Of a DNA stretch of 64,000 nucleotides, positions 2,950-22,645 are shown piece by piece. The number at the start of each line of letters is the position of its first letter. The stretch's first letter is position 1. The stretch spans positions 2,119 through 66,118 of the forward strand of contig CAZVPR010000009.1 in assembly GCA_964629085.1 (NCBI GenBank). Reading direction: 5' to 3'. Below the pieces are notes generated by a model, which saw only the letters and a list, made by a program, of their open reading frames with translations, had not been told where the DNA came from and searched no databases. The translations under genes were made by a program, and so were the position numbers. This DNA is from an uncultured Anaerolineales bacterium. GTDB taxonomy: Bacteria; Chloroflexota; Anaerolineae; Anaerolineales; UBA11858.

Positions 2950-2956
2950 TATTTAA

Positions 2957-3016: not shown

Positions 3017-3039
3017 AGATTGAAAAAAGGAGAGCAACC

Positions 3040-3363
3040 ATGAAACGATTTGGACAGGTAATTGGCGTTAAAGCCGAGACTTTCGATGAGTATGTTGAAT
3101 ACCATGCCGATGTCTGGCCTGAGATTTTGAGCATGATCCGCGAATGCAATATCACCAACTATTCCATCTTTCATAAAGACGGTCTGCTGTTTGCGTACTT
3201 CGAATATGTCGGTAATGATTTCGATGGCGATATGGCCAAGATGGCTGCCGACCCCAAGACCCAGGAATGGTGGGACATTATGATGCCCATGCAATCACCG
3301 CTGGAAACGCGCGCCGAAGGTGAGTGGTGGGCCAATATGGATGAAGTGTTCCATACTGACTAG
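3040..3363 (+). CDS. rhaM: L-rhamnose mutarotase (RhaM/YiiL family)
   Basis: 107 aa. Aligns by eye with E. coli RhaM landmarks (EY..H..WPE, NYSI, LF..E, WW..M, EVFH). GGAGAG RBS upstream. Confidence 0.85.
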   Translation: MKRFGQVIGVKAETFDEYVEYHADVWPEILSMIRECNITNYSIFHKDGLLFAYFEYVGNDFDGDMAKMAADPKTQEWWDIMMPMQSPLETRAEGEWWANMDEVFHTD

Positions 3364-3376
3364 ATAGGAGTTTTTC

Positions 3377-4546: not shown

Positions 4547-4547
4547 A

Positions 4548-5327: not shown

Positions 5328-5423
5328 ACAACGGATTTTACGAAGGAGGTGCCTCTAAACAATATTGTAAACGAAGTGTACTGTTGATTATTCAAGTAGA
5401 GAAAGATATTCGAGGAGAAAAAA

Positions 5424-6746
5424 ATGTCTGAAAACAAAAATCTATCCCGTCGTGACTTTCTGAAAGTTGTTGGTTTGGCCGGTGGTTCTGCTGCCTCTGT
5501 TGCAGCCGCTGCACCCAAGATTAGTGTTCCAGCTGTCATTGGCAAACCCTTTGATGGCAAGACCTTGCGCATGCACGCCATCAGTGGTGCCAACTACGAT
5601 GAGCTGTATAAGCTAATTCCCGCCTGGGAAGAAGAAACCGGCGCTACCGTTGAGTTCGTTTTCAAGGGCAATGGTTTCGAGACCGACAAGCGCCTGGTGC
5701 AGGATTTTGCAGCTGGCACCGTAGACTATGATGTCTGCTGGGATCACAGCAGCTTCTTCTCCCAGTATGTCAAAGCCGATGGCCTCGAGCCGCTGGATGA
5801 CTACTTCAGCGAGGAAGAATTGGGCGACTTCATCCCTGGCATTCTCAATGCTGCCGTGAAAGATGGTAAATTGTGGGCCATCCCGCGCCACTTCGATATC
5901 TCCTGCAACCACTTCCGCACCGATCTGGATATCGATGCTGCGCCAGAAACTTGGGATGAGTTCAAAGCCCAGGCGCTGGCAACCACCGAGAATAACCCCG
6001 GTGTCTTCGGGACCCAATTCGCGGGCAAAGAAGAAGCCCTTTCTGGGCGCTTCTACGAGGTGCTCATTGCTGAAGGTGGTGAGTTGTTGGATGATAGCTT
6101 TATGCCGGCCTTCAATAGCGCCGCCGGTGTCAAGGCTGCATCCATGTTCGCCGAGCTTTACGATGCTGGCGCCATGCCCCCCGATATGACCAACTTCCTT
6201 TGGGAAGATGTGGCTCAGCAGTGGGTCAGCGGTCTGATCGGTATGTACACCGAATGGTATGGTTGGTACGGCTACTTCCAGGATCCCAGCGCCAGCCAGG
6301 TTGCCGGGAAATTCGACATTGCTCGCCAGCCCAAGGGCGACGGCGGCATCCACAGTGGTTGGGCCGGGCATCACGCTTTCTCTATCACCAAGGCCTCCCA
6401 AGAAAAAGAGATGGCCGCTTCCCTGATCAAGCACCTGACCAGCGTTGAAGGAAATGACCTGGAAGCTGCTCTGGGTATTCTGGTTTCACGCCAGAGTGTT
6501 TGGGACCGCATCATTGCCGAAGCGGAAACATCTGAAGATCCGCTGGCCAAGAAACGCCTCGAGCTGGCCTTGCTGCAAGCGCAGGAAGACTTCCGCTCAC
6601 CGCCGCTGATCGCCGAGTGGCTGCCTCTTTCCAATATCCTTTACCCGATCGTGCAGCAGATCATCCTGGGTGACGTTGAAGCCCAGGCCGGTCTGGACGA
6701 AGCCGCCGAGAAGGTCGAAGCCATGATGAAAGAAGCTGGTTACTAA
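5424..6746 (+). CDS. ABC sugar transporter substrate-binding protein (family 1 SBP) with Tat-type signal
   Basis: 440 aa. N-terminus has SRRDFLKVVGLAGGSAASVAAAAP (twin-arginine motif plus h-region). Directly upstream of two MalF/MalG-type permeases. GAGGAG RBS. Confidence 0.85.
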   Translation: MSENKNLSRRDFLKVVGLAGGSAASVAAAAPKISVPAVIGKPFDGKTLRMHAISGANYDELYKLIPAWEEETGATVEFVFKGNGFETDKRLVQDFAAGTVDYDVCWDHSSFFSQYVKADGLEPLDDYFSEEELGDFIPGILNAAVKDGKLWAIPRHFDISCNHFRTDLDIDAAPETWDEFKAQALATTENNPGVFGTQFAGKEEALSGRFYEVLIAEGGELLDDSFMPAFNSAAGVKAASMFAELYDAGAMPPDMTNFLWEDVAQQWVSGLIGMYTEWYGWYGYFQDPSASQVAGKFDIARQPKGDGGIHSGWAGHHAFSITKASQEKEMAASLIKHLTSVEGNDLEAALGILVSRQSVWDRIIAEAETSEDPLAKKRLELALLQAQEDFRSPPLIAEWLPLSNILYPIVQQIILGDVEAQAGLDEAAEKVEAMMKEAGY

Positions 6747-6762
6747 AATTCGTTTGGTTTTT

Positions 6763-6793
6763 GGTAGGGGAAGTGTATCCTCCTTCCCCTACC
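6763..6793 (+). promoter_or_regulatory. Intercistronic stem-loop after the SBP gene
   Basis: GGTAGGGGAAG (6763-6773) / CTTCCCCTACC (6783-6793) form a perfect 11-bp stem with a 9-nt loop and no T-tract. Placement between SBP and permease genes is typical of mRNA-stabilising hairpins. Confidence 0.5.
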
Positions 6794-6840
6794 ACCCTCA
6801 AAAATATCCGTTTATCCACGAGTAATTCCCGAGAGTAACT

Positions 6841-7785
6841 ATGACCGCACAAACTCACGCAGAAAAAATTCCCCGGCGAAGGCGCGGTATTCAACTCACC
6901 GAACGGCATTTGCCCCTGGCGCTATTATTTCCAAGTATTCTCATTATCCTGTTGATCGTTGGTTTCCCGATGATCTATTCATTGTATGTCAGTTTCACCA
7001 ACTTCAACCTGACCTCACCGGGGAATGTCGACTTTATCGGTTTCAAGAACTACATCACCCTGTTCACGGATGATCCGCTCTTCTGGAAGTCCTTTGGACG
7101 CACCATTCTCTTTATCAGTCTGGCGGTAAACCTTGAGTTTCTCTTGGGGCTTGGCATCGCACAACTGATGGCGAAGGTCATTCGGGGGCAAGGCCTGGCG
7201 CGCACATTGATGATGACACCGATGATGTTCGCACCCATTCTGGTGGGTTTTCAGTTCAAGTGGTTCTTCAATGCTCAGGTGGGTTTGGTTAACAACATAC
7301 TCTATACTCTCACCGGGGAGCCGAATTTTATCCCCTGGTTGATCGATAAACCTCTAGGATTTATTTCCATTTTGATCGCTGAGATCTGGATGAGTACGCC
7401 CTTTATGGTGATCATCCTCGAAGCGGGTATTCTTTCCTTGCCGGTAGAACCCTTTGAAGCGGCCGAAGTTGATGGAGCCTCGGGTTGGCAGAAATTCCGC
7501 CACCTGACGCTGCCGATGTTGATGCCCTTTGTTTATACAGCCATGGCCATCCGTTCCCTGGATATCGCCAGGGCCTACGATGTCGTCAGCATCATGACGG
7601 GAGGGGGGCCAGGCAACCGTACGGAATTGATCTGGACTTATGTAAACCGCCTGGCGTTCAGCAGCAAACAATTTGGTCTTGGGTCTGCGATGTCCTTTGT
7701 CACCGTGATCCTCAGTTTTACTTTTACATATATGTTCTTTAGCAATGTCCTCAAAAGCCGTTGGGCAGGAGGTAGTGACGAATGA
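6841..7785 (+). CDS. ABC sugar transporter permease (MalF/CUT1 type)
   Basis: 314 aa with multiple TM segments. Has the EAA-like loop (..EAAEVDGASGWQKFRHLTLP..). Confidence 0.9.
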   Translation: MTAQTHAEKIPRRRRGIQLTERHLPLALLFPSILIILLIVGFPMIYSLYVSFTNFNLTSPGNVDFIGFKNYITLFTDDPLFWKSFGRTILFISLAVNLEFLLGLGIAQLMAKVIRGQGLARTLMMTPMMFAPILVGFQFKWFFNAQVGLVNNILYTLTGEPNFIPWLIDKPLGFISILIAEIWMSTPFMVIILEAGILSLPVEPFEAAEVDGASGWQKFRHLTLPMLMPFVYTAMAIRSLDIARAYDVVSIMTGGGPGNRTELIWTYVNRLAFSSKQFGLGSAMSFVTVILSFTFTYMFFSNVLKSRWAGGSDE

Positions 7786-8678
7786 GTGCACTTGCCACAC
7801 ACAAACGACGTAACCAGCGCAATCGCTGGCGAGATACCTTCAACGACATACTATTGTGGGTGATCCTGTTCATCTTTTTCGTTCCTGCGCTTTGGATTAT
7901 CCTGACTTCCATTCGCATTCGTAACGAAATCAACGCTCATCCGCCTGTGTGGATTCCCAAAGGCTTTACCCTGGATTCGTACAAAATCTTGTTTGGCATG
8001 CCCACCCCGGATGGTGCGTTTGGCATGGGCGGTTCGATCCCTATCGCCGATTACGCCACGAATTCAATCGTCATCGCGTTGGTCAGCACCATATTTGCGC
8101 TGATTTTTGGAACCTTGGCCGGATATGTCTTTTCTCGATTCAATTTCAAAGGTAAGAACGGCATTTTCTTGGGGATGATGTTGGCCCGAGCTGTCCCCGG
8201 TATTGCCTTGAGTTTGCCGCTTTTCATCATGTACGCCCGGGTAAAGATTTCCGACACGATCTTTGGCATGATCATCACCTATGTGGCTCTAAATATCCCC
8301 TTCACGGCCTGGCTGATGGACGGCTTCTTCCGGGCTATTCCCAAGGAACTGGATGAGGCGGCGCGCATTGATGGCTGTTCGGCTTGGAGCGCTTTCGTCC
8401 GCATAGACCTGCCTTTGGCATTGCCTGGCGCCGCCGCGGCGGGTATCTTTGCCTTCTTGACCTCCTGGAACGAGTTTGCCTTGTCGAGCATTATTACCCG
8501 CACGCCGTCTTCGCGGACGTTCCCACCGGCGCTGTTTGAGTTCACCGGTCAATTTGTTTCCGACTGGCGCGGTATGACGGCCATGTCGGTCTTGATGCTG
8601 ATCCCGGCGATAATCTTCGTGGGAGTCATCCAGCGCCAGTTGTTGGAGGGCCTGACCTCGGGCGCCACGAAAGGATAA
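7782..8678 (+). CDS. ABC sugar transporter permease (MalG/CUT1 type)
   Basis: 298 aa. EAA loop (..DEAARIDGCSAWSAFVRIDLP..). ATGA start/stop overlap with the upstream permease. Confidence 0.9.
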   Translation: MSALATHKRRNQRNRWRDTFNDILLWVILFIFFVPALWIILTSIRIRNEINAHPPVWIPKGFTLDSYKILFGMPTPDGAFGMGGSIPIADYATNSIVIALVSTIFALIFGTLAGYVFSRFNFKGKNGIFLGMMLARAVPGIALSLPLFIMYARVKISDTIFGMIITYVALNIPFTAWLMDGFFRAIPKELDEAARIDGCSAWSAFVRIDLPLALPGAAAAGIFAFLTSWNEFALSSIITRTPSSRTFPPALFEFTGQFVSDWRGMTAMSVLMLIPAIIFVGVIQRQLLEGLTSGATKG

Positions 8679-8690
8679 TTAAGTTTATTG

Positions 8691-8764
8691 CCCTCACCCC
8701 TAGCCCCTCTCACTCTGGGACGCCGACGGCGGGAAACCGTAGCGAAGCGAAGGTGGGGTGAGGG
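8691..8764. repeat. REP-like palindromic intergenic element
   Basis: CCCTCACCCC (8691-8700) / GGGGTGAGGG (8755-8764) is a perfect inverted repeat around a GC-rich 54-nt spacer. Confidence 0.55.
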
Positions 8765-8805
8765 AGGATCAAAAATTGGTTGATAAAGTAATTGAGAACT
8801 GAAAA

Positions 8806-10044
8806 ATGACTCCTCGCCAACGAGTATTAGCCGCCATAAATCACCAAGAACCCGATAAGCTGCCCGTCGATATCGGCGCCACGCCCAGTTCGGGGATTTC
8901 GGCCATCGCCTATGATCAGTTGATCCGACATCTCGATTTCAAAGATCGCCGCAATTGGGTCTATGATGTCGTGCAGCAGGTCACTCAACCCTCGGCTGAA
9001 TTTCTGGATCGCTTTGGGATTGATTCTGTCGACGTGGCGCGCATGTTCAACACGCGTGACGAAGACTGGTATGACTATACTTTGGCCAACGGCAAAACTG
9101 CCCAACAGCCCAATTGGTTCCGTCCGGAACTGCAAGAAGACGGCTCCTATCTGGCTTATCTGAATCAGGAAGTGATCGCCAAGATGCCGGTTGGGGCGAC
9201 ATTCTACGACCAGACCGTTTTCCCATTTTTGGATGGATACCCCGAGAAATATGGCAAGAATATGGATCAGGCTATGGGACAAATCCATTGGGCGGGACTT
9301 GCGCATAGCCCCTGGGACCACGCCGGGGAGGCGGATTTTTGGGACCAACTGCGCTCGAAGGCGATCCAATTAAGGGAGACCAGCGATAGGGCTATCATGG
9401 TCGTGGCGGGGTGCAACCTCTTCGAGTGGGGCACCTTCTTGCGCCGGCTGGATAACTTCTTGATGGATTTGCTTCTTGACCAAGCCAATGTCGAACGCCT
9501 CTTGGATGCCCTGATGGAGCGCCACCTGAGAACACTGGAAAATGTTTGCAATGCCGTGGGCGATGTCGTTGATATCATCCGCTTTGGCGATGATCTGGGT
9601 ATGGACACCGGGCCGTTTATGAAGCCCGAAATTTATCAGAAACTCTTCAAGCCACGCCACACGATCTTGTGTGATTATGTCAAACAGCACAGCAGTATGC
9701 ACACATTCTTGCATTCATGTGGCTCGATTTATAAGTTGATCCCCGATCTGATCGAGGCGGGATTTAAAATTCTCAACCCGGTACAGATCAATTCACGGGA
9801 TATGGAGCCAGAACGTCTGAAGTCTGAATTTGGCAATGAGGTTGTCTTTTGGGGCGGTGGGGTAGATACCCGCTCAATTTTAAACAGAGCCACGCCCGAG
9901 GTAGTCAAAGACCATGTGCGGAAAAACATCGAAATCTTAGCCCCAGGCGGTGGTTTTATTTTCAACACAGTCCATAACATCATGCCAGATGTGCCGCCTG
10001 AAAATATCATGGCAATGTTTGCAGCCATTGACGAATATCGCTAA
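8806..10044 (+). CDS. URO-D family protein (paralogue 5)
   Basis: 412 aa. Motifs [24 protein letters not shown] and [20 protein letters not shown]. Confidence 0.85.
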
Positions 10045-10136: not shown

Positions 10137-11948
10137 ATGAGTACAGACCAAATGAAATCCAATCCACCTCGCAACCGCCTGGTTGGAGAGATGCCCAAAA
10201 TTGGTATCCGACCCACCATTGACGGTCGCCGTAAAGGTGTGCGCGAATCGCTTGAAGACCAAACCATGAACATGGCCAAAAATGTGGCCGCTTTCCTGAG
10301 TGAAAACCTACGTCATGCCAATGGTACTCCCGTCGAATGCGTGATTGCCGATACCACCATTGGTGGCGTGGCTGAGGCTGCTCAATCCGCGGAGAAATTT
10401 GCCCGAGAAGGTGTGGGCGTTTCTTTAACAGTCACGCCTTGCTGGTGTTACGGCTCGGAAACTATGGATATGGACCCCCTGACTCCGAAGGCTGTCTGGG
10501 GCTTCAACGGCACCGAGCGACCCGGAGCGGTCTACCTGGCGGCCGTGATGGCGGGGCACAGTCAAAAAGGGCTTCCGGCTTTCAGCATCTATGGCCGTGA
10601 TGTACAAGACAACGATGATACGAGCATCCCCGAGGATGTCCAGGAGAAGCTGCTGCGTTTTGGGCGCGCCGGTTTGGCAGTCGCCACCATGCGAGGTAAA
10701 TCCTACCTCTCGATGGGCGGCGTATCCATGGGCATTGCCGGGTCGATTGTCGATCAGGACCTATTCGAAGAATTCCTGGGAATGCGTGTTGAGTCGGTCG
10801 ACATGACTGAATTTACTCGTCGTTTCAATGAAGAAATATACGATCCCGAAGAATTTGAAGTGGCTCTAAAATGGGTCAAGGAAAACTGCCCCGAGGGTAA
10901 AGACTACAATCCTCCCGAAGATGAGCAAAGCCGTGAGCAAAAGGATGCCAACTGGGCGACCTCTGTCAAGATGGCGCTGATCGCCCGAGATCTGATGGTC
11001 GGCAATCCGCGCCTGACCGAGTTGGGCTATGGTGAGGAGGCCATGGGGCGCAATGCCATTGCAGGCGGCTTCCAGGGTCAACGGCAATGGACGGATCACT
11101 ACCCCAACGGTGATTTCATGGAAGCGATCTTGAATACTTCCTTCGACTGGACGGGTATTCGAGAGCCCTATATTGTAGCCACCGAAAATGATGCTCTGAA
11201 CGGCATTTGTATGCTGTTTGGCCAGCTGCTGACCGGCACCGCCCAGATCTTTGCCGATGTTCGCACCTACTGGAGTCCAGAAGCGGTCAAACGTGTCAGC
11301 GGCTATGACCTGGAAGGTAAGGCGGCCGGTGGAATTTTGCATCTGATCAATTCTGGCCCCGCAGCGTTAGATGGCACCGGCCAGCAAGAGATCGATGGCA
11401 AACCGGCCATGAAGCCTTATTGGGAGATCACGGCTGAGGAGGCGAAAAGCTGTCTCGAAGCCACCAGTTGGCACGCTGGAATTACAGAATATTTCCGTGG
11501 CGGCGGTTGGTCGACCAAATATAAAACCCAGGGCAGAATGCCGGTGACCATGTGCCGGATAAACCTGATCAAGGGTTTGGGACCGGCGCTGCAGATTGCC
11601 GAAGGCTATTCCGTTGAACTGCCCGAGGATGTACACTTCACCCTCGATGAGCGCACCAATCCCACCTGGCCGACAACCTGGTTTGCGCCCAACCTGACCG
11701 GCCAAGGACCCTTCCGCGATGTCTACACTGTTATGGCCAATTGGGGAGCCAATCATGGCTCGATTTCTTACGGTCATATCGGCGCCGATCTGATCACATT
11801 AGCCTCGATGCTGCGAATTCCGGTTTATATGCACAATGTGCCCGCAGAGCAAGTGTACCAACCGCATGCCTGGGCAGCCTTTGGTGCTAATGAACCCCAA
11901 AGTGCAGATTTCCGGGCTTGCGCGAGCTTTGGTGCTTTATACGCGTGA
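10137..11948 (+). CDS. fucI: L-fucose isomerase
   Basis: 603 aa. Length and N-terminus ([22 protein letters not shown]...) match FucI. AAGGAGA RBS. Confidence 0.9.
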
Positions 11949-12078: not shown

Positions 12079-13563
12079 ATGACCTCATTTGCAGCAATTG
12101 ACCTGGGTGCTGAAAGCGGCCGCGTGATGCTCGGCTCGTTGAAGGGCAAAAATCTTAAACTGAAAGAACTTCATCGTTTTTCGAATGGTGGTGTCCGCCT
12201 TGGAGAAAGTTTGCAGTGGGATGTCTTGCGACTTTGGAGTGAGATCAAGAATGGCTTACAATTTGCTGGTCAAGAACCGGGGATTGATTTGAAAAGTGCC
12301 GGGCTTGATACCTGGGGCGTAGATTTCGGTCTTTTGGCCGCGGATGACTCACTGTTAGGTAATCCCTATCATTATCGTGACGGCCGCACAGATAGCATGC
12401 TGGAAGAAGTTTTTTCTCGGATTCCTCAGTGGGAAATCTATCAATGTACCGGTATCCAGTTTATGCAGCTCAACAGCCTGTATCAGCTTTTCGCAATGGC
12501 TCAGGCTAAATCGCCACAGCTTTCACTGGCCAAGCGATTTTTGAACATGCCAGACTTGCTAAACTTTTTTATGACAGGCCGAAAAGCCAATGAGTTCACT
12601 ATCTCGACAACTACGCAATGTTACGATCCCATTAAGAAAGATTGGGCTTTTAATCTTCTTGAGAACCTGGACATTCCAGGAGAGATTTTTGGTGAGATCG
12701 TACCTTCTGGGACAGTATTAGGGGAATTGCGCGCCTCAATTGCTCAGGAATTAGGATTATCCCAATTATCTGTGGTAGCCAGTGCTGGCCATGATACGGC
12801 CAGCGCGGTTGCGGCGGTGCCCGCCGTTCCGGCGTCGACACAAGATTTCATTTACCTTAGCTCTGGGACCTGGTCTTTATTAGGTGTAGAACTCGACCAA
12901 CCCATGATCACCCGAGAGAGCATGAATGCCCCCATGACCAATGAGGGTGGCGTTGGTGACAAGATCCGTTTCTTGAAGAATATTGTCGGGTTATGGTTGA
13001 TTCAGGAGTGTCGCAGAAATTGGGGTACCCATGGAAAAAACTATAGCTACGATGATCTGAGCAGTATTGCTGCCCAGGCTGCTCCCTTTGGGTCCTTAGT
13101 AAATCCGGATGATTCCCGCTTCTTGGCTCCAGATGAGATGCCTAAGGCTATTCAAAGTTATTGCCAGGAAACCGGTCAAACCGTTCCATTAACCCATGGG
13201 GAAATCGTACGTTGCGTGCTGGAAAGTCTGGCCATGGAATACCGTTGGGTGGCTGAGCAAATCGATCAACTGACAAAAAAACATCATCCTGTGATCCATA
13301 TCATTGGTGGTGGTTCGCAAAACAAGCTGCTCAATCAATTTGCAGCCAATGCCACCGGGCGGACAGTTATTGCCGGCCCAGTGGAGGCTACCGCGATTGG
13401 CAATGTCTTGGTTCAGGCAATTGCCATGGGTGAAATCGGTTCGCTGGCAGAAGGACGCGGGATTGTAAAAGGCTCGTTTGCTGTAGAGACATATCAGCCA
13501 GTTGATACTGGAGCCTGGGATGATGCTTATCAAGGTTATATAGACCTGAAAACGAGAAAGTAA
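12079..13563 (+). CDS. FGGY-family sugar kinase, rhamnulokinase-like (L-rhamnulose/L-fuculose kinase)
   Basis: 494 aa. N-terminus AAIDLGAESGRVMLG..LHRFSNG resembles E. coli RhaB (VDLGASSGRVML..IHRFNNG). Sits between fucI and a FucA-like aldolase. Confidence 0.85.
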   Translation: MTSFAAIDLGAESGRVMLGSLKGKNLKLKELHRFSNGGVRLGESLQWDVLRLWSEIKNGLQFAGQEPGIDLKSAGLDTWGVDFGLLAADDSLLGNPYHYRDGRTDSMLEEVFSRIPQWEIYQCTGIQFMQLNSLYQLFAMAQAKSPQLSLAKRFLNMPDLLNFFMTGRKANEFTISTTTQCYDPIKKDWAFNLLENLDIPGEIFGEIVPSGTVLGELRASIAQELGLSQLSVVASAGHDTASAVAAVPAVPASTQDFIYLSSGTWSLLGVELDQPMITRESMNAPMTNEGGVGDKIRFLKNIVGLWLIQECRRNWGTHGKNYSYDDLSSIAAQAAPFGSLVNPDDSRFLAPDEMPKAIQSYCQETGQTVPLTHGEIVRCVLESLAMEYRWVAEQIDQLTKKHHPVIHIIGGGSQNKLLNQFAANATGRTVIAGPVEATAIGNVLVQAIAMGEIGSLAEGRGIVKGSFAVETYQPVDTGAWDDAYQGYIDLKTRK

Positions 13564-13565
13564 TT

Positions 13566-14222
13566 ATGGTACAGAGTGAATATCGCTTGCGCCAGGAAAT
13601 AGTGCGTGTGACGCGCATCGTTGCCAACCAGGGCCTGGTGCGCTCTAGTGATGGAAATATTTCCATTCGGTTGGAAGCAGATCGATTTCTGGTCACCCCG
13701 AGCGGCCTTTATAAAATGGCGATGGAACCGGATGATCCGATTATTGTGGATTCGTCTGGAACCGTATTGGTGGGTAAACCCGGTTTGCGACCGACTTCAG
13801 AAATCAACATGCATTTGGAAGCTTACCGACAAAGACCGGATATTCAGGCAGTTTTACATGCACATCCTCCCTTTGCCACGGCTTTAACAATTGCTGAACG
13901 CTCATTTCCTACCGACTATTTACCTGAGGTGTTGATTGCTTTAGGCGATGTGCCTATCGCTGGTTATGGCACCCCTGGGACGCCGCAATTAGGCGAAAGT
14001 ATTCGCGAATTGATCAAAGATCATAATGTGGTTTTGCTCAGTCATCACGGCAGTCTCAATGTGGGAAAAACCCTGGAAGAGGCGCTAATTTCCCTGGAAC
14101 GATTGGAGCACGCCGCTTACACATATTGCTTAGCGCACGGCCTGGGTAATCCTATCCCGCTGCCGGAAAAAGAGTTGCTGAATTTGCGAGAAATTGGGAA
14201 GAACTTGAGTCAAGGATCTTAA
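13566..14222 (+). CDS. fucA: Class II aldolase/adducin family, L-fuculose-1-phosphate aldolase-like
   Basis: 218 aa, which is FucA-size. Motifs SDGNISIR..VTPSG and LHAHPPFATAL. Starts 3 nt after the kinase stop. Confidence 0.75.
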   Translation: MVQSEYRLRQEIVRVTRIVANQGLVRSSDGNISIRLEADRFLVTPSGLYKMAMEPDDPIIVDSSGTVLVGKPGLRPTSEINMHLEAYRQRPDIQAVLHAHPPFATALTIAERSFPTDYLPEVLIALGDVPIAGYGTPGTPQLGESIRELIKDHNVVLLSHHGSLNVGKTLEEALISLERLEHAAYTYCLAHGLGNPIPLPEKELLNLREIGKNLSQGS

Positions 14223-14511: not shown

Positions 14512-16329
14512 ATGAATGGTTGGACGAAAAAATTAATACGAGTAGATTTGACTACCAGAAAAACATCGGTCGAAGAGATCGATGATCAAATCTTGCATCA
14601 ATACCTGGGGGGGAGAGGTTTAGGAACTTTCCTGGTATATTCTGAAGTATCACCAGACATCGACCCCCTCGGTCCAGAGAACCTGCTGGCTTTTTGCACG
14701 GGCTCTATGACTGGTCTGCGCGTTCCCACGGGAGGGCGTTCCAGTATGAGCACGCTCTCTCCGTTGACTGGCACAGTATTTGATGCCAACTCAGGTTCAC
14801 AATTTGGTGTGCGCTTGCGCTGGGCTGGATATGATGCCTTGGTAGTCAGTGGCCAAGCCAGCGAACCGGTTTGGCTGGAAATAGATTTGGAGGGTGCCAA
14901 AATTCATTCGGCTGAGGATTTGTGGGGACAGGAAATCCCCGAAACTGTCGAAAGCCTTAAATCGCAGGCCAAAACCAAGGGATCAGCCGTGGTTAGCATC
15001 GGTCCCGCGGGCGAGTACCAAGTTCTGTTTGCTGCCATCGCCGATGAAAAAGGGCGCTGCTTCGGACGTGGTGGAGTCGGCGCTGTGATGGGTTCCAAGA
15101 ATCTCAAAGCGATAGTAGCCCGTGGTAAAGATAAGCCTGGGATTGCCGACACCAAAATTTTTGATTTTGTGAATTATGAAGCCAGCAAAATGGTCAACGC
15201 TTCGCCACGAACATCGCAAGGTTTGCCGGAGTTCGGCACCTCGGTGCTGGTCAATTTGATGAACTGGTATGGTGTCTTGCCCACAAATAACTTTCAGCTT
15301 GGTGAATTCGCAGGGGCAGACAAAATTTCGGGAGAGCGATTGCGTGATGAATACCTTACAAAACGCGGCGCCTGCTGGGGTTGTCCCATTGGCTGTAAGC
15401 GCAATACCAAAACCGAACGCGAAACAGGTGAAGGTCCAGAATATGAGACCATCTATGCCCTGGGGTCATCCTTGGGCATAGATGATTTTGATGCTGTCAT
15501 AGAGGCTAACTACTTGTGCAATCGCCTGGGTATGGATACGATCTCTTGCGGCGCTACGATTGCCTGCGCCATGGAGCTGGCTGAACGCGGTTTGCTTGAT
15601 ACAGAATTGGCCTTTGGACGCGCCGATTTGCTCCTGCAGACCGTCGAAGATATCGCTCATCGTCGTGATCTGGGTGACGAACTTGCTCAAGGCTCCAAGC
15701 GACTGGCCGAAAAATACAATGCTCAGGAAACTGCAATGCAGGTCAAAGGGCTCGAATTTCCGGCGTATGATCCCCGAGGCATGCAAGGGCAGGGATTGTT
15801 ATACGCCACGTCCAATCGTGGTGCCTGCCACTTGCGTGGTAACATGCTCGGGCCGGAACTGCTCGGCTCGCCAAAAATGTTGGATCGCCATGCTTCCTCT
15901 GGAAAAGCAGGCATCTTAATCGTGATGCAGCATAGTAACGCCGTGATCGATTCGATTGGTATGTGCAAATTTGTTAATTTTGCTATTGGTGATGATTTCT
16001 TTGCGCGTATGATGAGTTCTGTTACCGGTGTGGATTATGAAGTTCAAGATTTACAACTGGCCGGTGAGCGCATCTGGAATTTGGAGCGACTTTACAACCT
16101 TCGGGCGGGATTCAGCGCCTCTGACGATACCTTGCCTCCCAGGTTCCTGGAACAACCCCTCAAAGAGGGCGGCAGCGCCGGGCATGTAGTTCAACTGGAA
16201 GAGATGTTGGCAGAATATTACCGTTTCCGTGGATGGACGCCTGAAGGCGAACCAACAGACAAAAAATTATCAGCTTTGGGCCTCACTAAATTAGGCGCAA
16301 AGTATTCGGAGGCACGCAGTCATGCTTGA
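14512..16329 (+). CDS. aor: Aldehyde:ferredoxin oxidoreductase (AOR family, tungsto/molybdopterin + [4Fe-4S])
   Basis: 605 aa. N-terminus GWTKKLIRVDLTT..YLGGRGLG is the AOR N-domain signature. Has a Cys cluster (CWGCPIGC). GGAGAAA RBS. Confidence 0.9.
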   Translation: MNGWTKKLIRVDLTTRKTSVEEIDDQILHQYLGGRGLGTFLVYSEVSPDIDPLGPENLLAFCTGSMTGLRVPTGGRSSMSTLSPLTGTVFDANSGSQFGVRLRWAGYDALVVSGQASEPVWLEIDLEGAKIHSAEDLWGQEIPETVESLKSQAKTKGSAVVSIGPAGEYQVLFAAIADEKGRCFGRGGVGAVMGSKNLKAIVARGKDKPGIADTKIFDFVNYEASKMVNASPRTSQGLPEFGTSVLVNLMNWYGVLPTNNFQLGEFAGADKISGERLRDEYLTKRGACWGCPIGCKRNTKTERETGEGPEYETIYALGSSLGIDDFDAVIEANYLCNRLGMDTISCGATIACAMELAERGLLDTELAFGRADLLLQTVEDIAHRRDLGDELAQGSKRLAEKYNAQETAMQVKGLEFPAYDPRGMQGQGLLYATSNRGACHLRGNMLGPELLGSPKMLDRHASSGKAGILIVMQHSNAVIDSIGMCKFVNFAIGDDFFARMMSSVTGVDYEVQDLQLAGERIWNLERLYNLRAGFSASDDTLPPRFLEQPLKEGGSAGHVVQLEEMLAEYYRFRGWTPEGEPTDKKLSALGLTKLGAKYSEARSHA

Positions 16330-16951
16330 TCAATTTCAGCGTTTTGGACACGATTTATTTATGCGCGGTCTGACCTCCTCGCATGGCGGCAATATGAGCG
16401 TGCGCATGGGCGACCGAATTTTCATTACAAGGACCGGTGCAATGCTGGCCCACATGACGGAAAAAGATATCATCGAAATTGGCCTGGATGAGGATGATAG
16501 CAATATCATGTTGGCATCCAGTGAACTGGTTGTTCATCGTGAAATCTACCAGAAGACGCCGGCCCTGGCCATTGTGCATGTGCACCCGCCGCATGCGGTG
16601 GCAATATCGATGGCCGTTGAAGATGCCATCATTCCCATCGATAGCGAAGGGTCGTATTTGTTCCGCAAAGTTCCTGTAGTACAAACTGAAAAAACCGTCG
16701 GTTCGAAAGAAGCTGCCAAAATTGCCGCCGAAATGCTGGGAGAATACAAGATCTTTATGCTGCGCGGCCATGGCTGTTTCTCGATTGGGCCTGTGCTGGA
16801 GGAAGCTTACCAGTGGTGTTCGAGTCTGGAAGAATCCTGCAAAATGTATTACCTCACCCGAACACTACAGGCAGCCGAGGCAGCCATTTCGCAAGGGGGC
16901 CTGGGCGATCTAGAATATCGTAAACACACTGGCGATTACGATACCTGGTAA
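16322..16951 (+). CDS. Class II aldolase/adducin family protein (second copy)
   Basis: 209 aa. Motifs SHGGNMSVR..ITRTG and VHVHPPHAVAIS. Overlaps the AOR stop by 8 nt, suggesting translational coupling. Confidence 0.8.
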   Translation: MLDQFQRFGHDLFMRGLTSSHGGNMSVRMGDRIFITRTGAMLAHMTEKDIIEIGLDEDDSNIMLASSELVVHREIYQKTPALAIVHVHPPHAVAISMAVEDAIIPIDSEGSYLFRKVPVVQTEKTVGSKEAAKIAAEMLGEYKIFMLRGHGCFSIGPVLEEAYQWCSSLEESCKMYYLTRTLQAAEAAISQGGLGDLEYRKHTGDYDTW

Positions 16952-17233: not shown

Positions 17234-18193
17234 ATGAAGAAAGCGTTAGTATGTGGGGCGGGTGGTTTTATCGGTGGACATCTGGTAAAGAAACTGAAAC
17301 GAGAAGGTTATTGGGTACGAGGGGTTGATATCAAAAAACATGAATTCGCCACAACTCAGGCGGATGATTTTCTGCTTTTGGATCTCAGAGAGGAAGATAA
17401 TTGTAATGCTGCGCTGACTGTTGGTGATGGTACTTTTGACGAGGTCTATCAATTGGCGGCAGATATGGGCGGCATGGGTTTCATCCATTCAGCCGAATGT
17501 GAGATCATGCGCAACAGCGCCCTGATCAATGTTCACATGACGCATTTCGCCTCGAAAATGGGCGTACCGCGTTATTTCTTTTCATCATCGGCCTGTGTTT
17601 ACCGTGACATGCAGCCCGGTGAAGAAGCCCTGACCGAAGATGAAGCTTATCCTGCTTTGCCAGACAACGAGTACGGTTGGGAAAAGCTCTATGCCGAGCG
17701 CATGGCTTACGCCTATATGCGCAACCAGGGCATGCAGGTGCGTGTGGCGCGCTTCCAGAATTGCTATGGCCCAGAAGGTACCTGGGATGGTGGGCGAGAA
17801 AAAGCCCCAGCAGCCATCAGCCGAAAGGTGGCCATGGCTGAAGATGGCGGTACCATTGATGTTTGGGGGGATGGCACTGCGATTCGCGCCTACACCTATG
17901 TCGATGATCTGGTGGATGGTATTTACATGTTGATGCAATCCGATTGCCAGGAGCCCGTCACCATTGGGACGACCGAATTTACTACCGTGGATGATCTGGT
18001 TCACCGAGTCAGTGAAGCGGCAGGCAAGCATATCGAGATCAATCATATCGATGGGCCGGTGGGTGTACAGGCTCGCATATTGAACAAGGATCGCATCCAT
18101 GCATTGGGTTGGGAGGCGCAGTACACCTTCAAAGAGGGCATTGCCATCACCTATGCCTGGGTTGAAGAACAAGTAAAAAATTCCGGGAAATAA
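17234..18193 (+). CDS. GDP-mannose 3,5-epimerase-like NAD-dependent epimerase (extended SDR)
   Basis: I moved the start to the ATG at 17234, 6 nt after an AAGGAGAAA RBS; the listed 17186 start has none. GAGGFIG Rossmann motif. Blocks LAADMGGMGFI, SSACVY, YGWEKL, RFQNCYGPEGTWDGGREKAPAAISRK and WGDGTAIRAYTYVDD align by eye with plant GME. Confidence 0.8.
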   Translation: MKKALVCGAGGFIGGHLVKKLKREGYWVRGVDIKKHEFATTQADDFLLLDLREEDNCNAALTVGDGTFDEVYQLAADMGGMGFIHSAECEIMRNSALINVHMTHFASKMGVPRYFFSSSACVYRDMQPGEEALTEDEAYPALPDNEYGWEKLYAERMAYAYMRNQGMQVRVARFQNCYGPEGTWDGGREKAPAAISRKVAMAEDGGTIDVWGDGTAIRAYTYVDDLVDGIYMLMQSDCQEPVTIGTTEFTTVDDLVHRVSEAAGKHIEINHIDGPVGVQARILNKDRIHALGWEAQYTFKEGIAITYAWVEEQVKNSGK

Positions 18194-18217
18194 AATTCAG
18201 ATTGCGAGGGTAGCAAC

Positions 18218-19381
18218 ATGAGTTTAAAAGATGAGAGTGCCAGGAAAAAAGTTATTGTCAGTGGTTGTTACGATTTGTTGCACAGCGGCCATATTGCCTT
18301 CTTTCGGGAAGCATCGACTTATGGGGATTTGCATGTTGCTCTGGGCTCCGATCAAACAGTCTATGATTTGAAGGGACGTTTGCCGGTCAACAACGAAGAG
18401 GAGCGCCTCTTCATGGTCAAATCGGTGAACTATGTCAAGGATGCCTTCGTTTCTCAGGGATCTGGCATGTTGGATTTCTTGGAGGAATTCGAGCAGCTAA
18501 AACCAGATATCATGGTTGTGAACACGGAAGGCAGTGTTTACGAAAAGCAGCAATTGTGTGAGCAATACGGCGTTGAATACATCATATTGGAGCGAGAGCC
18601 GCATGCCGGCCTGCCGCGCCGTTCGACCACGTCATTACGGACCGTAAACCAAATGCCATTTCGAATAGACATTGCCGGAGGTTGGTTGGATCAACCTTAT
18701 GTGTCGGAGCACTATCCCGGTTCTGTGATCACCATTTCTCTCGAGCCGACGATCCAGTTCAACGAGCGCAGCGGTATGGCCTCCAGCACTCGCCGGGCGG
18801 CCATTGATATGTGGGGGCCAAAACTGCCACCAGGTGATCCGGAAAAAATTTCCAAGATCTTGTTCTGTTATGATAACCCGCCCGGCACCAAGGTGATTTC
18901 AGGTTCGCAAGATGCCATTGGTTTGGTGTTTCCTGGGTTGGCCAAAGCGCATTATGTCGGTGAATATTGGCCGACGCGTATCGAGCGGGTAATGGACGAA
19001 GCAACGCTGCAGTTTGTTGAGAATTCTTTTTATCTGATCACCCTCGGGCCGCGCCATGCCGAATATGATGTTTTAGATAACACCGATTTCAGCCACGAAA
19101 AGGCCAAAGCCCTGGCCGATGCTACCGATGAGTGCTGGCAAGCCATCCTGGCGCATGATATTAATTCCTTTGGCGAGGCCTTTCGAGCTTCCTTCGAAGC
19201 GCAGATTGCCATGTTCCCCAACATGATGAACCCCTCAGTTGCCGAACTAATTGAACAATATCGCGATCGGGCTTTAGGTTGGAAATTGTCTGGCGCTGGC
19301 GGAGGTGGCTATCTGATCCTGGTTTCTGATGAACCCATTGAGAATGCAACCCGGATATTAGCCCGCAGAGTAAACGGATAA
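18218..19381 (+). CDS. Fusion protein: cytidylyltransferase-like nucleotidyltransferase (N) + fucokinase/HddA-like GHMP sugar kinase (C)
   Basis: 387 aa. The N-terminal ~145 aa resemble TagD/RfaE-domain-II (VSGCYDLLHSGHIAFF ... RRSTTSLR). The C-terminal ~240 aa carry GHMP landmarks: RIDIAGGWLDQPY (GGW(S/T)D of fucokinases), SGMASST, GSQD and KLSGAGGGGYLILV. Confidence 0.7.
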   Translation: MSLKDESARKKVIVSGCYDLLHSGHIAFFREASTYGDLHVALGSDQTVYDLKGRLPVNNEEERLFMVKSVNYVKDAFVSQGSGMLDFLEEFEQLKPDIMVVNTEGSVYEKQQLCEQYGVEYIILEREPHAGLPRRSTTSLRTVNQMPFRIDIAGGWLDQPYVSEHYPGSVITISLEPTIQFNERSGMASSTRRAAIDMWGPKLPPGDPEKISKILFCYDNPPGTKVISGSQDAIGLVFPGLAKAHYVGEYWPTRIERVMDEATLQFVENSFYLITLGPRHAEYDVLDNTDFSHEKAKALADATDECWQAILAHDINSFGEAFRASFEAQIAMFPNMMNPSVAELIEQYRDRALGWKLSGAGGGGYLILVSDEPIENATRILARRVNG

Positions 19382-19385
19382 GCGC

Positions 19386-20156
19386 ATGGAATTACCTCAA
19401 CGAGAATCTCCCCAAGGTAAGCCGGTTTCACTTTTTGTGACCTGTTTGGTGGATTTGTTGTTCCCCGATTCCGGGATGTCGGTTGTTCAGGTTTTGGAAC
19501 ATATTGGGGTGAATGTAGAATTCCCTGAGGGCCAGACCTGCTGCGGCCAACCCGCCTATAACGGGGGTTATCGAAAGGAGGCAAAAAAGGTTGCTTTACA
19601 ATTCTTGCGCACCTTTCGGGACGCCCAGGTGATCGTAATCCCCTCGGGTTCTTGCGCAGCCATGATCCGCAAAGAATACTTGACTTTATTCGCGGATGAT
19701 CCCGAATGGCTGCCGGTTGCACAACGATTATCGGCTATCACCTGGGAATTTACTGAATTCATCGTTGATGGTTTGGGCATCAGCGATCTCAATGCCCGTT
19801 TGCCGGAGCCGAAGACTTTTTCTTTCCACGATTCATGTCATGGTCTGCGCCATTTGGGGTTAGGCTCCCAGGCGCGGGAACTCGTGAGTCGTATTGAAAA
19901 TGCCAGCATCGAGGAGATGGAAGAACATGAAACCTGCTGCGGCTTTGGGGGGTTGTTCAGCATCAAGATGCCAGAACTCAGTGGTGCCATGCTTGAGAAC
20001 AAAATCAAACACATCACTGCCTCACCCGCCCAAACGGTGGTTGGTGGCGATGTCAGTTGCTTAATGCATATCAACGGCGGTCTTATTCGCCAAAAATCTG
20101 AACCAAAAGTGCAATATATCGCCGATATCCTGGCCTATGGCTTACGAGGCGAATAA
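19386..20156 (+). CDS. lutA: L-lactate utilisation protein LutA ((Fe-S)-binding, two CCG domains)
   Basis: 256 aa. CCG motifs (TCCGQPAYNGG; TCCGFGGLFS). Followed by lutB and lutC in the canonical order. Confidence 0.85.
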   Translation: MELPQRESPQGKPVSLFVTCLVDLLFPDSGMSVVQVLEHIGVNVEFPEGQTCCGQPAYNGGYRKEAKKVALQFLRTFRDAQVIVIPSGSCAAMIRKEYLTLFADDPEWLPVAQRLSAITWEFTEFIVDGLGISDLNARLPEPKTFSFHDSCHGLRHLGLGSQARELVSRIENASIEEMEEHETCCGFGGLFSIKMPELSGAMLENKIKHITASPAQTVVGGDVSCLMHINGGLIRQKSEPKVQYIADILAYGLRGE

Positions 20157-21556
20157 TGAAAATTCGCTCCAACCAATTTCAACAAGCATCTCAAACGGCT
20201 ATTGCTGATGCGGACCAACGAATTGCTGTCGACCATGGAACTGGAATTGGATTCTCAAAACGTCAACTGGCCATGTACGCAGAGGGAGATGCGCATGGAG
20301 AAGCGTTACGCAAACAAGCGGCCGCCATCAAGCGTTGGGGACTTGACCACCTGCCAGAATTATTAACCCAGGCGGAAAATAACCTGCAAGCCAATGGCGT
20401 CACAGTGCTTTGGGCTGAGGATGCGGCTGAGGCCAACCGGCATGTTTTGGATATCATCCGACAGCACGGCTTGAAGAGGGCGGTCAAAAGCAAGAGCATG
20501 GTGACTGAGGAAGTAGGGTTAAACCAGGCGCTTAATGCGCAAGGTATCGAGGTAGTAGAGACGGATCTGGGGGAATATATTGTTCAAATTAGCGACGACC
20601 TTCCCAGTCATATCGTAATTCCAGTGGTGCATCGCTCTAAGGAAAGTATTCGAGATTCTTTCGTACAGCAGGTGGACATGTCTCCGGATGTTGACACACA
20701 GGAAATGGCTCAATTTGCCCGAGAGCTTTTACGAGAGAAGTTCTTACAGGCAGATCTCGGAATATCCGGGGGCAATTTCATTATCGCTGAGACAGGGGCC
20801 TTGTGCTTAGTGACCAACGAAGGCAACGCCCGCATGGTGACCAGCCTGCCAAACGTTCACGTCGCTTTAATTGGCATCGAAAAAGTGATCGGCACATTGG
20901 AAGATTTCGCTACCCTGACGCAGGTGTTGCCGCGCAGCGCTACGGGTCAGACGATTTCTGTATACACTCATATGATCCATGGCCCACGGCACGATAATGA
21001 AGTCGATGGGCCTGAATATGTTTACGTGATCTTCGTTGACAATGGCCGCAGCCGAATTTATAACTCAAATTACGCTGAGGCTTTGGCCTGCATCCGTTGC
21101 GGTGCCTGCCTGAACGCTTGCCCTGTCTATAAAATTACGGGAGGGCATGCCTATGGCTGGGTTTATCCGGGGCCGATCGGGGCTGTGATCACACCCCTTT
21201 TGAATGGTCTGGAAAATGCCAAACCTCTGCCCAACGCCAGCAGTTTATGCGGACTGTGCAAGGATGTCTGTCCGGTGGATATAGATTTGCCTGGGATGCT
21301 GCTAGATTTAAGATATGACCTTGTTGAACAGAATCACGACCCGTCATTGTGGAAGCGAGGCTTAGCGTTGTGGGCCGCTTTTTGGGCGCATCCTGCCCTT
21401 TACGAGATAACGGGTAAGGTCGGCGCTTTGGGAAGTAATCTGCTTCCAGATAAATTGCCCGGAGTTTTGGGGGGTTGGACAAATTCCCGAACATTACCAA
21501 AATTCACGAGCAAATCATTCCGCCAGCGCTGGAAGGGGCGAGTGACGCATGAGTGA
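20156..21556 (+). CDS. lutB: L-lactate utilisation protein LutB (4Fe-4S ferredoxin-type)
   Basis: 466 aa. Motifs CIRCGACLNACPVY and CGLCKDVCPV. 1-nt overlap with lutA. Confidence 0.85.
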   Translation: MKIRSNQFQQASQTAIADADQRIAVDHGTGIGFSKRQLAMYAEGDAHGEALRKQAAAIKRWGLDHLPELLTQAENNLQANGVTVLWAEDAAEANRHVLDIIRQHGLKRAVKSKSMVTEEVGLNQALNAQGIEVVETDLGEYIVQISDDLPSHIVIPVVHRSKESIRDSFVQQVDMSPDVDTQEMAQFARELLREKFLQADLGISGGNFIIAETGALCLVTNEGNARMVTSLPNVHVALIGIEKVIGTLEDFATLTQVLPRSATGQTISVYTHMIHGPRHDNEVDGPEYVYVIFVDNGRSRIYNSNYAEALACIRCGACLNACPVYKITGGHAYGWVYPGPIGAVITPLLNGLENAKPLPNASSLCGLCKDVCPVDIDLPGMLLDLRYDLVEQNHDPSLWKRGLALWAAFWAHPALYEITGKVGALGSNLLPDKLPGVLGGWTNSRTLPKFTSKSFRQRWKGRVTHE

Positions 21557-22193
21557 CAGCCGAGATAGGATTTTTGCCAGATTGGAGAAATCTTCGGGCC
21601 CAAAATTTAATATTGAGCCAATCGATGAATATCGACCCGTGGTTTCCGTCGATGATAAAAGTTCGGAAGCGCTGCGTGAGCTGTTCATTCAAAATGCCGA
21701 ACGATTGGCCTGTTTGGTCTATCAGGTAGTTGATGAAAATGAGGCCATTCAAACTGTAATTGATTTGTTGAAGGATGCCGAAAAGGTTTCGACCTGGGCT
21801 CAAGAAGAAATCCCGTTACCAGGGTTGTTTGCTGAATTGGATGCCGCAGGAATCACTTTTTCGACGCAGGACAATCCTCGGGTTCGATATGGAATCACCG
21901 GAGCCAACGCGGCAATAGCCGCCATCGGTAGCCTGGTATTGGCCAGTGGCCTGGGGCGTTTTAGAGCTCCATCGATTTTGCCACCCAAGCATATCGCCAT
22001 ACTTGAATCCTCGAAAATTTTTGCCTCGTTGGAAAGTTGGCTGTCGGAACAGCGGAAATCAGGAATTGAAGAACTCCAAAAATCAAGTAACATTGTGTTG
22101 ATTTCGGGCCCCAGCCGCACGGCTGATATTGCCATGGAGTTGGTCATGGGGATGCATGGGCCGAAGGAATTACATATTATCCTGTTGCCTTGA
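21549..22193 (+). CDS. lutC: L-lactate utilisation protein LutC (LUD domain)
   Basis: 214 aa. Overlaps lutB by 8 nt. Position and size fit LutC; the sequence-level call is weaker than for LutA/B. Confidence 0.75.
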   Translation: MSDSRDRIFARLEKSSGPKFNIEPIDEYRPVVSVDDKSSEALRELFIQNAERLACLVYQVVDENEAIQTVIDLLKDAEKVSTWAQEEIPLPGLFAELDAAGITFSTQDNPRVRYGITGANAAIAAIGSLVLASGLGRFRAPSILPPKHIAILESSKIFASLESWLSEQRKSGIEELQKSSNIVLISGPSRTADIAMELVMGMHGPKELHIILLP

Positions 22194-22225
22194 TCTTCTC
22201 AAAATTTGGCTATAAGGAGATAAAA

Positions 22226-22645
22226 ATGCTAGAAAAAGTTCATGAACATATAGTCAGCGAATTACAGCAAAATGCTCGCACGGATACAATTTTCGTCGTA
22301 ACAGCCATTGCATTCAACCTTATCGTTTTGGGGATAAATTCTGCTGTTGCAGGAGAAGCAGCCTCAGCCAATTCAAGTTCTTCCAACGATATTATCCTGG
22401 GTGTTTTTATCATCATGTGCTTGTTGGTAAACGGCATTGCTGTAACAGCGCTGAATTCTGGAAAGCAGTCCCGTGAGACTCTTCTGCATGGTCTACTCAA
22501 GATGTATAGGGATAATGATGTGGCCCAATATTATGACTCAGCCCTGATTGCGGGATACGGAAAACGTTATATCCTTTTTATGAGCGTCATTCTTTGCCTG
22601 GCGGTTACAAGTATTGTGGTGCCTGTAATCATTCGCACTATGTAA
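22226..22645 (+). CDS. Small hypothetical membrane protein (about 3 TM helices)
   Basis: The start is set at the ATG at 22226, preceded by an AAGGAGA RBS; the listed 22190 start overlaps lutC and lacks an RBS. Hydrophobic segments are present and I recognise no family. Confidence 0.5.
   Translation: MLEKVHEHIVSELQQNARTDTIFVVTAIAFNLIVLGINSAVAGEAASANSSSSNDIILGVFIIMCLLVNGIAVTALNSGKQSRETLLHGLLKMYRDNDVAQYYDSALIAGYGKRYILFMSVILCLAVTSIVVPVIIRTM

Follow-up and report, generated by a model that had tools for sequence, protein, structure and literature searches.

Analysis of the window, by which we mean the whole 64,000-nucleotide stretch of contig CAZVPR010000009.1 from an uncultured Anaerolineales bacterium, revealed two adjacent + strand genes that encode a GDP-mannose 3,5-epimerase-like (GME-like) enzyme and a fusion of a nucleotidyltransferase (NT) with a GHMP sugar-1-kinase. 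Pfam and NCBIfam searches placed both genes inside a long sugar operon on the same strand, and the window is a case of this pair lying mid-way in a complete, ferredoxin-linked fucose-to-pyruvate operon. Together, the epimerase and the fusion fit a module that links free sugars of L-galacto configuration with the GDP-mannose pool. The features of the operon are as follows.

66-10044, + strand: span within which five URO-D-family genes lie; a creatininase-fold gene accompanies them (domain scans)
3040-3363, + strand: RhaM-family mutarotase-like open reading frame (ORF), 107 aa (47% identical by tblastn to the RhaM domain within the P0123 fusion)
5424-8678, + strand: ABC sugar importer, an SBP_bac_1 binding protein and two permeases (Pfam)
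10137-11948, + strand: L-fucose isomerase, FucI (Pfam Fucose_iso N1, N2 and C)
12079-13563, + strand: FGGY rhamnulo/fuculokinase (TIGR02627, 499 bits)
13566-14222, + strand: class II aldolase, FucA-like (PF00596)
14512-16329, + strand: aldehyde:ferredoxin oxidoreductase (AFOR), with lactaldehyde oxidation as its probable role (AFOR_N, AFOR_C)
16322-16951, + strand: second class II aldolase, PRK08660 type (NF006413, 229 bits, exceeding the cut-off)
17234-18193, + strand: GME-like short-chain dehydrogenase/reductase (SDR), a GDP-hexose 3,5-epimerase of 319 aa, here GME_A (E 3e-78 to the Arabidopsis enzyme AtGME, 2c59)
18218-18640, + strand: N-terminal domain of the fusion, residues 1-141, an NT of the HxGH cytidylyltransferase fold (PF01467, family profile, fold matches)
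18650-19381, + strand: C-terminal domain of the fusion, residues 145-387, a compact, fucokinase-like GHMP sugar-1-kinase (FKP matches)
19386-22193, + strand: lutABC, lactate utilisation (CCG, LUD and Fer4 domains; TIGR00273, 461 bits)

The ORF of the epimerase could begin at 17186 or 17234 and ends at 18193, and that of the fusion runs from 18218 to 19381. Since orthologues of the epimerase begin MKKALVCGAGG in the alignment, its start was assigned to the ATG at 17234. lutABC begins 5 nt past the end of the fusion gene, and a consensus scan of the 280-nt gap 5' of the epimerase gene found no promoter- or terminator-like site above chance. The catabolic setting that the initial annotation had described was borne out, with FucI, the FGGY kinase, two class II aldolases and AFOR encoded upstream and lutABC downstream. 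L-Fucose would be taken by FucI, the kinase and aldolase to lactaldehyde, and from there through lactate to pyruvate.

Assignment of the first gene product as GME-like, made in the initial annotation from blocks shared with the plant enzyme, is well founded. These blocks (LAADMGGMGFI, RFQNCYGPEGTWDGGREKAPAA and WGDGTAIRAYTYVDD) are present, and in a structure-sequence search the Arabidopsis GME structures matched over the whole epimerase length (E 3e-78), compared with 3e-27 for the runner-up structure, a UDP-glucuronate decarboxylase; the score to the heptose 6-epimerase model was 2e-16. The residues that define GDP-mannose 3,5-epimerases (GM35E) relative to GalE and Fcl are S143, Y174 and K178, the acid-base pair C145/K217, R306, N203 and R243; the C145/K217 pair is absent from GalE, and Fcl has His and Lys instead (PMC8787198). 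When the printed AtGME alignment was read with a chain offset of +2, equivalents of S143, C145, Y174, K178, N203, K217, R243 and R306 were all found to be kept in the window epimerase. The features of an extended SDR are also there, with GAGGFIGG as the GxxGxxG NAD motif and SSSAC and YGWEK on the AtGME S...YxxxK positions, and SSAC, GGREK and QAR fall on C145, K217 and the acidifying R306. By its sequence, the protein is a GDP-mannose 3,5-epimerase-like enzyme with a complete set of predicted catalytic residues.

The subclade to which GME_A belongs nevertheless departs from canonical GMEs near the active site: RFQNC replaces RFHN[IV] beside N203, ARILNK (as in the window copy) or SRNFSN stands in place of GRNSDN after R306, and three residues following the catalytic Cys are deleted. 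Interconversion of GDP-D-mannose with GDP-L-galactose or GDP-L-gulose would be the predicted activity, and it is supported indirectly by the gmd neighbours of the clade and by the ManC and mannose-6-phosphate isomerase (PMI) genes in the modules described below.

The second protein, of 387 aa, carries CYDLLHSGH, RIDIAGGWLDQPY and SGAGGGGY and had been described as a TagD/RfaE-II-type HxGH NT joined to a fucokinase-like GHMP kinase, a description with which the domain searches agree. In Pfam, residues 14-104 matched PF01467 and residues 309-383 matched PF08544, and the NCBIfam matches were rfaE_dom_II and the Fkp C-terminus. PF07959, the fucose pyrophosphorylase family, had no Pfam match in the fusion, so that of the domain models proposed for checking PF01467 and PF08544 were matched and PF07959 was not; the NT domain is PF01467. 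In the NT half, Protein Data Bank (PDB) matches of the family profile were ECT, TagD and 3glv, an RfaE-II-like protein of Thermoplasma, and Foldseek matched the fold of this half to TagD, the Fom1 CyTase and HldC. The NT half is a nucleotidyltransferase of the HldC/TagD fold.

For the kinase half, the family profile identified the fucokinase part of FKP as the best solved relative (E 9e-14, versus 1e-6 for HddA), while a Foldseek search with a model of pLDDT 88.9 gave a near tie between the WcbL heptokinase (7.7e-10) and FKP (2.2e-9). At kinase motif I, FKP was the sole PDB alignment, with R149, W156, D158 and Q159 placed on FKP R592, W599, D601 and T602; the first three residues are the same as in FKP, and Q159 takes the place of the FKP Thr. 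In FKP these four provide contacts to the anomeric oxygen and to the C3 and C4 hydroxyls, together with a stacking Trp (PMC11982464). From equal spacing alone we infer that G229-x-Q231-D232 are probable counterparts of FKP G759, Q761 and D762. FKP tolerates variation in the substituent at C5 (PMC11982464), so that a similar pocket would be expected to accept L-galactose and D-arabinose as well. In sum, the core activity of the fusion is likely that of a kinase and NT together yielding an NDP-L-sugar. Its substrate is probably an L-galacto-configured sugar, converted to the 1-phosphate and then to the NDP-sugar, as several independent lines of comparative and genetic evidence suggest. Because the partners of the fusion are gmd, fcl, manC and GME, the nucleotide of the product is probably GDP.

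The fusion belongs to a family that is large yet patchily distributed. More than 8000 homologues were found in a large sequence collection, named only 'adenylyltransferase/cytidyltransferase family protein', and those from Chloroflexota are ~75% identical to the window protein. The family, of which 250 representatives score below 1e-30, is characterised by an HxGH NT of ~140 aa and, C-terminal to it, a ~240-aa GHMP domain that bears the GGWLD, GxQD and Gly-rich motifs; the total length is 370-390 aa, and the window fusion fits this layout. Only two of 301 genomes of the window's phylum and five of 301 Bacteroidia-class genomes carried the fusion, too few for co-occurrence statistics from these samples. 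A complementary distribution of the fusion and Fkp was considered and discarded: Fkp was above the cut-off in none of nine fusion genomes, which says nothing because the base rate in genomes of the same class was also 0/151. Some family members have further domains or unusual neighbours. P0125 (655 aa) has a PNP_UDP_1 nucleoside phosphorylase domain ahead of NT-GHMP, and the distant split relatives P0175 and P0176, which lie in glycan-synthesis-type neighbourhoods, were set aside as too remote.

Gene neighbourhoods of the family were compared at 80 species-genome loci, from Anaerolineae, many Bacteroidota, Verrucomicrobiota, Ignavibacteriota and others, using BLAST with our own reference set and an NCBIfam check. 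gmd adjoined the fusion gene in 14 loci, with fcl mostly next, and a FucP-like MFS permease was found in 13; manC (five loci), FucI with a kinase (three), GH29 (two) and a RhaM mutarotase (two) also occurred. Where X denotes the NT-GHMP fusion, Bacteroidota have a tight operon fucP-X-gmd-fcl-manC, and Rosetta-stone fusions of the forms RhaM::X (P0123), FucP::X (P0424) and Gmd::X (P0425) were identified. In P0207, Gmd is joined to the kinase half alone, and in P0426 (1263 aa) the family NT domain precedes an Fkp-like protein in which the PF07959 match is limited to the distal part of the model. GT2 and flippase genes adjoin the family genes in some relatives. Other Anaerolineae fusion loci, with GFO/IDH oxidoreductase, aldo-keto reductase and aldehyde dehydrogenase neighbours, gave no clear functional signal.

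Comparison with published data identified one family member with a proposed function. In Akkermansia, spontaneous D-arabinose-resistant mutants were all affected in Amuc_1591, and L-fucose or mucin rescues growth (PMC13313206). That loss of function confers D-arabinose resistance and that L-fucose rescues indicates tolerance at the C5 substituent, as in FKP. Amuc_1591 was proposed, from genetics and modelling and not from enzymatic data, as a 'fucose-nucleotidyltransferase' for lipopolysaccharide (LPS) fucosylation (Gut Microbes 2026, PMC13313206). It has the same two-domain architecture and the same NCBI name as the window fusion, and its supplement sequence contains VSGCYD..H.GH, R.D.AGGWLD.P, GWQD (the counterpart of GSQD) and a glycine-rich motif III, as in the fusion; it is a distant relative, compared by eye at the motif level only. 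Amuc_1591 lies in the murJ transcription unit, and no GME partner or catabolic operon was reported for it (PMC13313206).

Pairing of the fusion with GME was seen only in a subclade of at least ~64% identity, mostly from Anaerolineae. The pair recurs in two metagenome-assembled genomes as LacI-ABC-[X]-[GME]-FucI-FucU and on a JGI contig in the same arrangement as in the window. A search from the epimerase side added a locus (L096) of the order LacI-ABC-FucI-FucU-AFOR-aldolase-GME-PMI-X, in which a gene for a class I PMI lies between GME_A and the fusion gene (L096:10971-12942). The fusion copy at this locus, which stops at residue 333 without GHMP motif III, is frameshifted, a pseudogene or misassembled. 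Of 80 metagenome loci of the GME_A clade, most had neighbours of other kinds; about ten of these genes lay beside gmd, which argues for GDP-sugars, and only four lay beside the fusion. In three other Anaerolineae genomes, URO-D-family (methyltransferase-like) genes occur next to the GME, kinase and NT module (L180:5062-6369, L182:12523-13584 and L187:6981-8006), and this recurrence suggests that the substrates may be O-methylated L-fucose or L-galactose. In the window, the RhaM-like ORF (3040-3363) is flanked by two URO-D genes.

A second set of such genes, unfused, was found elsewhere in the same genome.

L009:306-10599 (contig C90 of genome G000), - strand: second set, one operon

This operon encodes LacI, a second epimerase (GME_B), a GHMP-only kinase, a double NT protein, ManC, an ABC permease, a double-PBP binding protein, an ATPase and FucU. 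GME_B is 41% identical to GME_A and retains the canonical GRNSDN, and the first HxGH of the double NT protein is degenerate (NLNSRAV). The GME-kinase-NT trio was found in ten of 250 genomes of the same class, and 11 trio loci were examined, from our own genome, Leptolinea, the cultured Anaerolinea thermolimosa IMO-1 and eight of the ten trio genomes. GH29 was encoded in five of these 11 loci, with three copies in one, and LacI in at least five; an ABC importer, ManC, FucU and URO-D each occurred in three, and GH2, GH31 and an MFS transporter were also seen. The locus of strain IMO-1, which also has the fusion, reads LacI-GH29-GME-kinase-NT. No glycosyltransferase was recognised among the identifiable genes of the 11 loci, and the trio contexts look like sugar-utilisation loci. 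Canonical FucI (70-76% identical) is encoded elsewhere in seven of the ten trio genomes, indicating that L-fucose already has its own route there. Our own genome encodes ManC on contigs C90 and C24. On contig C1 it carries gmd and fcl side by side and a second gmd-like gene with further SDRs (93475-95508 and 135585-141690), so that GDP-fucose is made de novo and the genome has a use for such donors.

Comparison with known systems places the pair among several characterised enzymes. The closest analogue of the fusion is Fkp of Bacteroides fragilis (PDB 5yys, 9iip, 9iit), which likewise joins a GHMP sugar-1-kinase and an NT in one polypeptide, is the best sequence match of the kinase half, and has in common with it the R, W and D of motif I and a GxQD motif. 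Fkp is, however, 949 aa long compared with 387 aa for the fusion, whose kinase domain is only ~240 aa; the two domains come in opposite orders, the NT being N-terminal in the fusion, and the Fkp NT is a PF07959 pyrophosphorylase with a beta-helix, whereas that of the fusion has the HxGH cytidylyltransferase fold. The HldE/RfaE and HddA/HddC systems have the HldC NT fold in common with the fusion, whose GHMP kinase also has HddA and WcbL among its relatives. The HldE/RfaE kinase, in contrast, is of the ribokinase (PfkB) type, and unlike heptose activation the arrangement here implies no intervening phosphatase step and has fucose and GDP-sugar genes as its identifiable neighbours. The epimerase resembles Arabidopsis GME (2c59) and Methylacidiphilum MfGM35E over its full length, with catalytic and substrate-anchoring residues in common. 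The known roles of GME are biosynthetic, in ascorbate, cell wall and LPS formation (PMC8787198), whereas the window GME lies in a catabolic, importer-linked operon.

We propose that the pair acts in a catabolic shunt that resembles the Leloir pathway. In the Leloir pathway (GalK/GalT/GalE) and in the bifidobacterial galacto-N-biose/lacto-N-biose (GNB/LNB) pathway (NahK/GalT2/GalE2), an anomeric kinase, nucleotide transfer and epimerisation lead to release of a common sugar-1-phosphate. Here, L-galactose would enter through the same uptake and mutarotase system as L-fucose. The GHMP domain of the fusion would phosphorylate L-fucose, L-galactose or D-arabinose at the anomeric carbon, and the HxGH NT domain would combine the sugar-1-phosphate with a nucleotide, probably from GTP, giving L-Gal-1-P and then GDP-L-Gal. 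The GME-type epimerase would interconvert GDP-beta-L-galactose and GDP-alpha-D-mannose, and pyrophosphorolysis by ManC would convert GDP-Man to Man-1-P with regeneration of GTP, followed by Man-6-P and Fru-6-P. Such a module would share with the Leloir and GNB/LNB pathways its logic, its LacI-type regulator and its link to an importer, and would differ from them in using GDP instead of UDP, a 3,5- instead of a 4-epimerase, an L-sugar substrate, and two pyrophosphorylases in place of the uridylyltransferase exchange. Its components are distributed, with the kinase, NT and epimerase in the window, ManC on other contigs, and LacI and the importer with the relatives and the second set.

Which way the module runs was addressed by weighing the gene contexts, and the two fates suggested in the initial annotation, salvage of L-sugars for glycans and a catabolic route from L-galactose to GDP-mannose, are still the two most likely. 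For both, the comparative evidence indicates that the sugar activated is of L-galacto configuration. We tentatively place the catabolic shunt, from L-galactose through GDP-L-galactose and GDP-mannose to mannose phosphate, at a little below an even chance. The two GME copies of the genome each belong to an operon that is catabolic or has LacI or an importer, relatives have GME interspersed among glycoside hydrolase genes, and L-fucose has a separate route in most carriers; ManC and PMI, where present, would complete the path and fit it. The alternative is that the pair supplies GDP-L-sugars for surface glycans: the fusion would salvage imported or GH29-released L-fucose, and also L-galactose, to the GDP-sugar, GME would make GDP-L-galactose or GDP-L-gulose from GDP-mannose, and the only reason for their place in the fucose operon would be that salvage relies on its importer and mutarotase. 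We regard this as quite possible, though less than probable. It draws on the fucP-X-gmd-fcl-manC operon and the Gmd::X fusion, which unite salvage and de novo enzymes, on the GT2 and flippase genes of some relatives, on the LPS fucosylation proposed for Amuc_1591 (PMC13313206), on GME_A-clade genes that lie beside gmd, fcl, flippase and Wzy genes in metagenomes, and on the de novo GDP-fucose genes of the genome itself. It is less easily reconciled with the position of the two GME copies, neither of which is in a glycan island, or with the Anaerolineae GME genes interleaved with GH29, GH2, GH31 and LacI and not with glycosyltransferases, and it gives no obvious explanation of why a de novo enzyme should share a transcript with the genes for oxidation of lactaldehyde and lactate.

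Several points weigh against the catabolic shunt. We know of no member of the HxGH-fold family that uses GTP; its characterised members known to us use CTP or ATP. Sugar specificity, GTP use and the direction of flux are all things that we infer, and GH29 enzymes are primarily fucosidases whose role as alpha-L-galactosidases is assumed. The pathway is reversible, and ManC and PMI therefore fit de novo synthesis of GDP-L-Gal equally well; the presence of ManC in the second set, considered for a time as decisive for catabolism, was dropped as an argument since manC also occurs in the plainly biosynthetic Bacteroidota operon. That operon, fucP-X-gmd-fcl-manC, shows that family members normally lie together with, and in some cases are joined to, a de novo enzyme for which their product is not a substrate, and it is a direct biosynthetic precedent. 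A GME_A-clade copy of 74% identity lies near PAPS synthase, flippase and Wzy genes, a glycan-synthesis cluster directly follows the operon in two close relatives, and type I PMI was not found in our own genome, which is 90% complete. Known GMEs are also slow, with kcat <=0.2 s-1 (PMC8787198).

Two further readings change the substrate of the epimerase or of the fusion. The epimerase might turn GDP-L-fucose into GDP-D-rhamnose (or GDP-6-deoxy-L-gulose or GDP-6-deoxy-D-altrose), so that scavenged fucose would provide a second 6-deoxyhexose donor for glycans. The chemistry is feasible, as the 4-keto intermediate of GDP-L-fucose epimerisation is that of the Fcl reaction; GH29 and FucU neighbours indicate fucose as the sugar at hand, and the departures of GME_A from canonical GME near the active site could reflect such a substrate. 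This is nonetheless improbable, given that it assigns no role to the ManC and PMI of the modules, that the unfused copy with canonical GRNSDN has the same partners, and that we know of no GME with 6-deoxy activity. More improbable again is activation of a heptose or another non-fucose sugar with ATP or CTP, in a mixture of HddA- and HldC-like functions, with the epimerase acting on an ADP- or CDP-sugar. The nucleotides used by characterised members of the NT fold would suit it, as would the rfaE_dom_II and HldC scores of the NT domain and the place of WcbL as top kinase fold match, slightly ahead of FKP. By sequence, however, FKP outscores HddA and motif I matches FKP alone, the epimerase is far closer to GME than to the heptose 6-epimerase model, and the neighbours seen are fucP, gmd, fcl, GH29, FucI and FucU. 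The window operon had no Pfam match to an SIS-type (GmhA-like) domain, and only one SIS gene occurred in the annotated neighbourhoods, ~5 kb from a lone GME_A gene, GmhB not having been specifically searched; the query set for the 80 fusion-family loci held no GmhA, GmhB or HddC references, and heptose genes were undetectable there. A grouping with heptose or LPS-type pathways, which the initial annotation had named as grounds for abandoning its proposal, was not seen by sequence or gene context, but the fold search scores WcbL as well as FKP.

Beyond lutABC, a 151-aa ORF (22190-22645, + strand) that shares 4 nt with the end of lutC had no Pfam or NCBIfam match. About 250 nt downstream of it begins a 10,120-codon ORF (window 22900-53262, + strand), and GC content falls to 42-44% where this ORF begins.

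The initial annotation had regarded the domain combination as new. Our searches instead showed that the fusion is not new: the architecture is widespread and not unique, its family numbers thousands, and it was noticed in a 2026 paper in which Amuc_1591 was already proposed as a fucose nucleotidyltransferase. Literature searches on the fusion family, on bacterial L-galactose catabolism via GDP-sugars and on a Leloir-like L-galactose route found only this Akkermansia paper, and no description was found in the literature of the enzymology of the family, of a guanylyltransferase of the HxGH fold, or of GME in a catabolic GDP-sugar route. What the window adds is the pair within a fucose-to-pyruvate operon, an unfused second set with ManC, and a repeated association with URO-D genes. 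In its fullest form our proposal, which we advance with slightly less confidence than the shunt itself, is of a Leloir-like L-galactose catabolism conserved in Anaerolineae, with a fucokinase-like kinase, an HxGH-fold guanylyltransferase, a reversed GME and ManC pyrophosphorolysis as its steps, which here and in three relatives may couple to URO-D/corrinoid O-demethylation of methylated L-sugars.

If the shunt is true, it would be the first bacterial entry of an L-hexose to central metabolism through GDP-sugars, and it would give a catabolic role to GDP-mannose 3,5-epimerase, hitherto known only from ascorbate and glycan biosynthesis. Should GTP be used, the HxGH cytidylyltransferase fold would, to our knowledge, have its first guanylyltransferase in the fusion. 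Whatever the direction of flux, the fusion family would provide a compact and non-homologous substitute for Fkp that could serve in one-pot synthesis of GDP-L-fucose or GDP-L-galactose, and thousands of genes annotated as 'adenylyltransferase/cytidyltransferase family protein' would gain a function.

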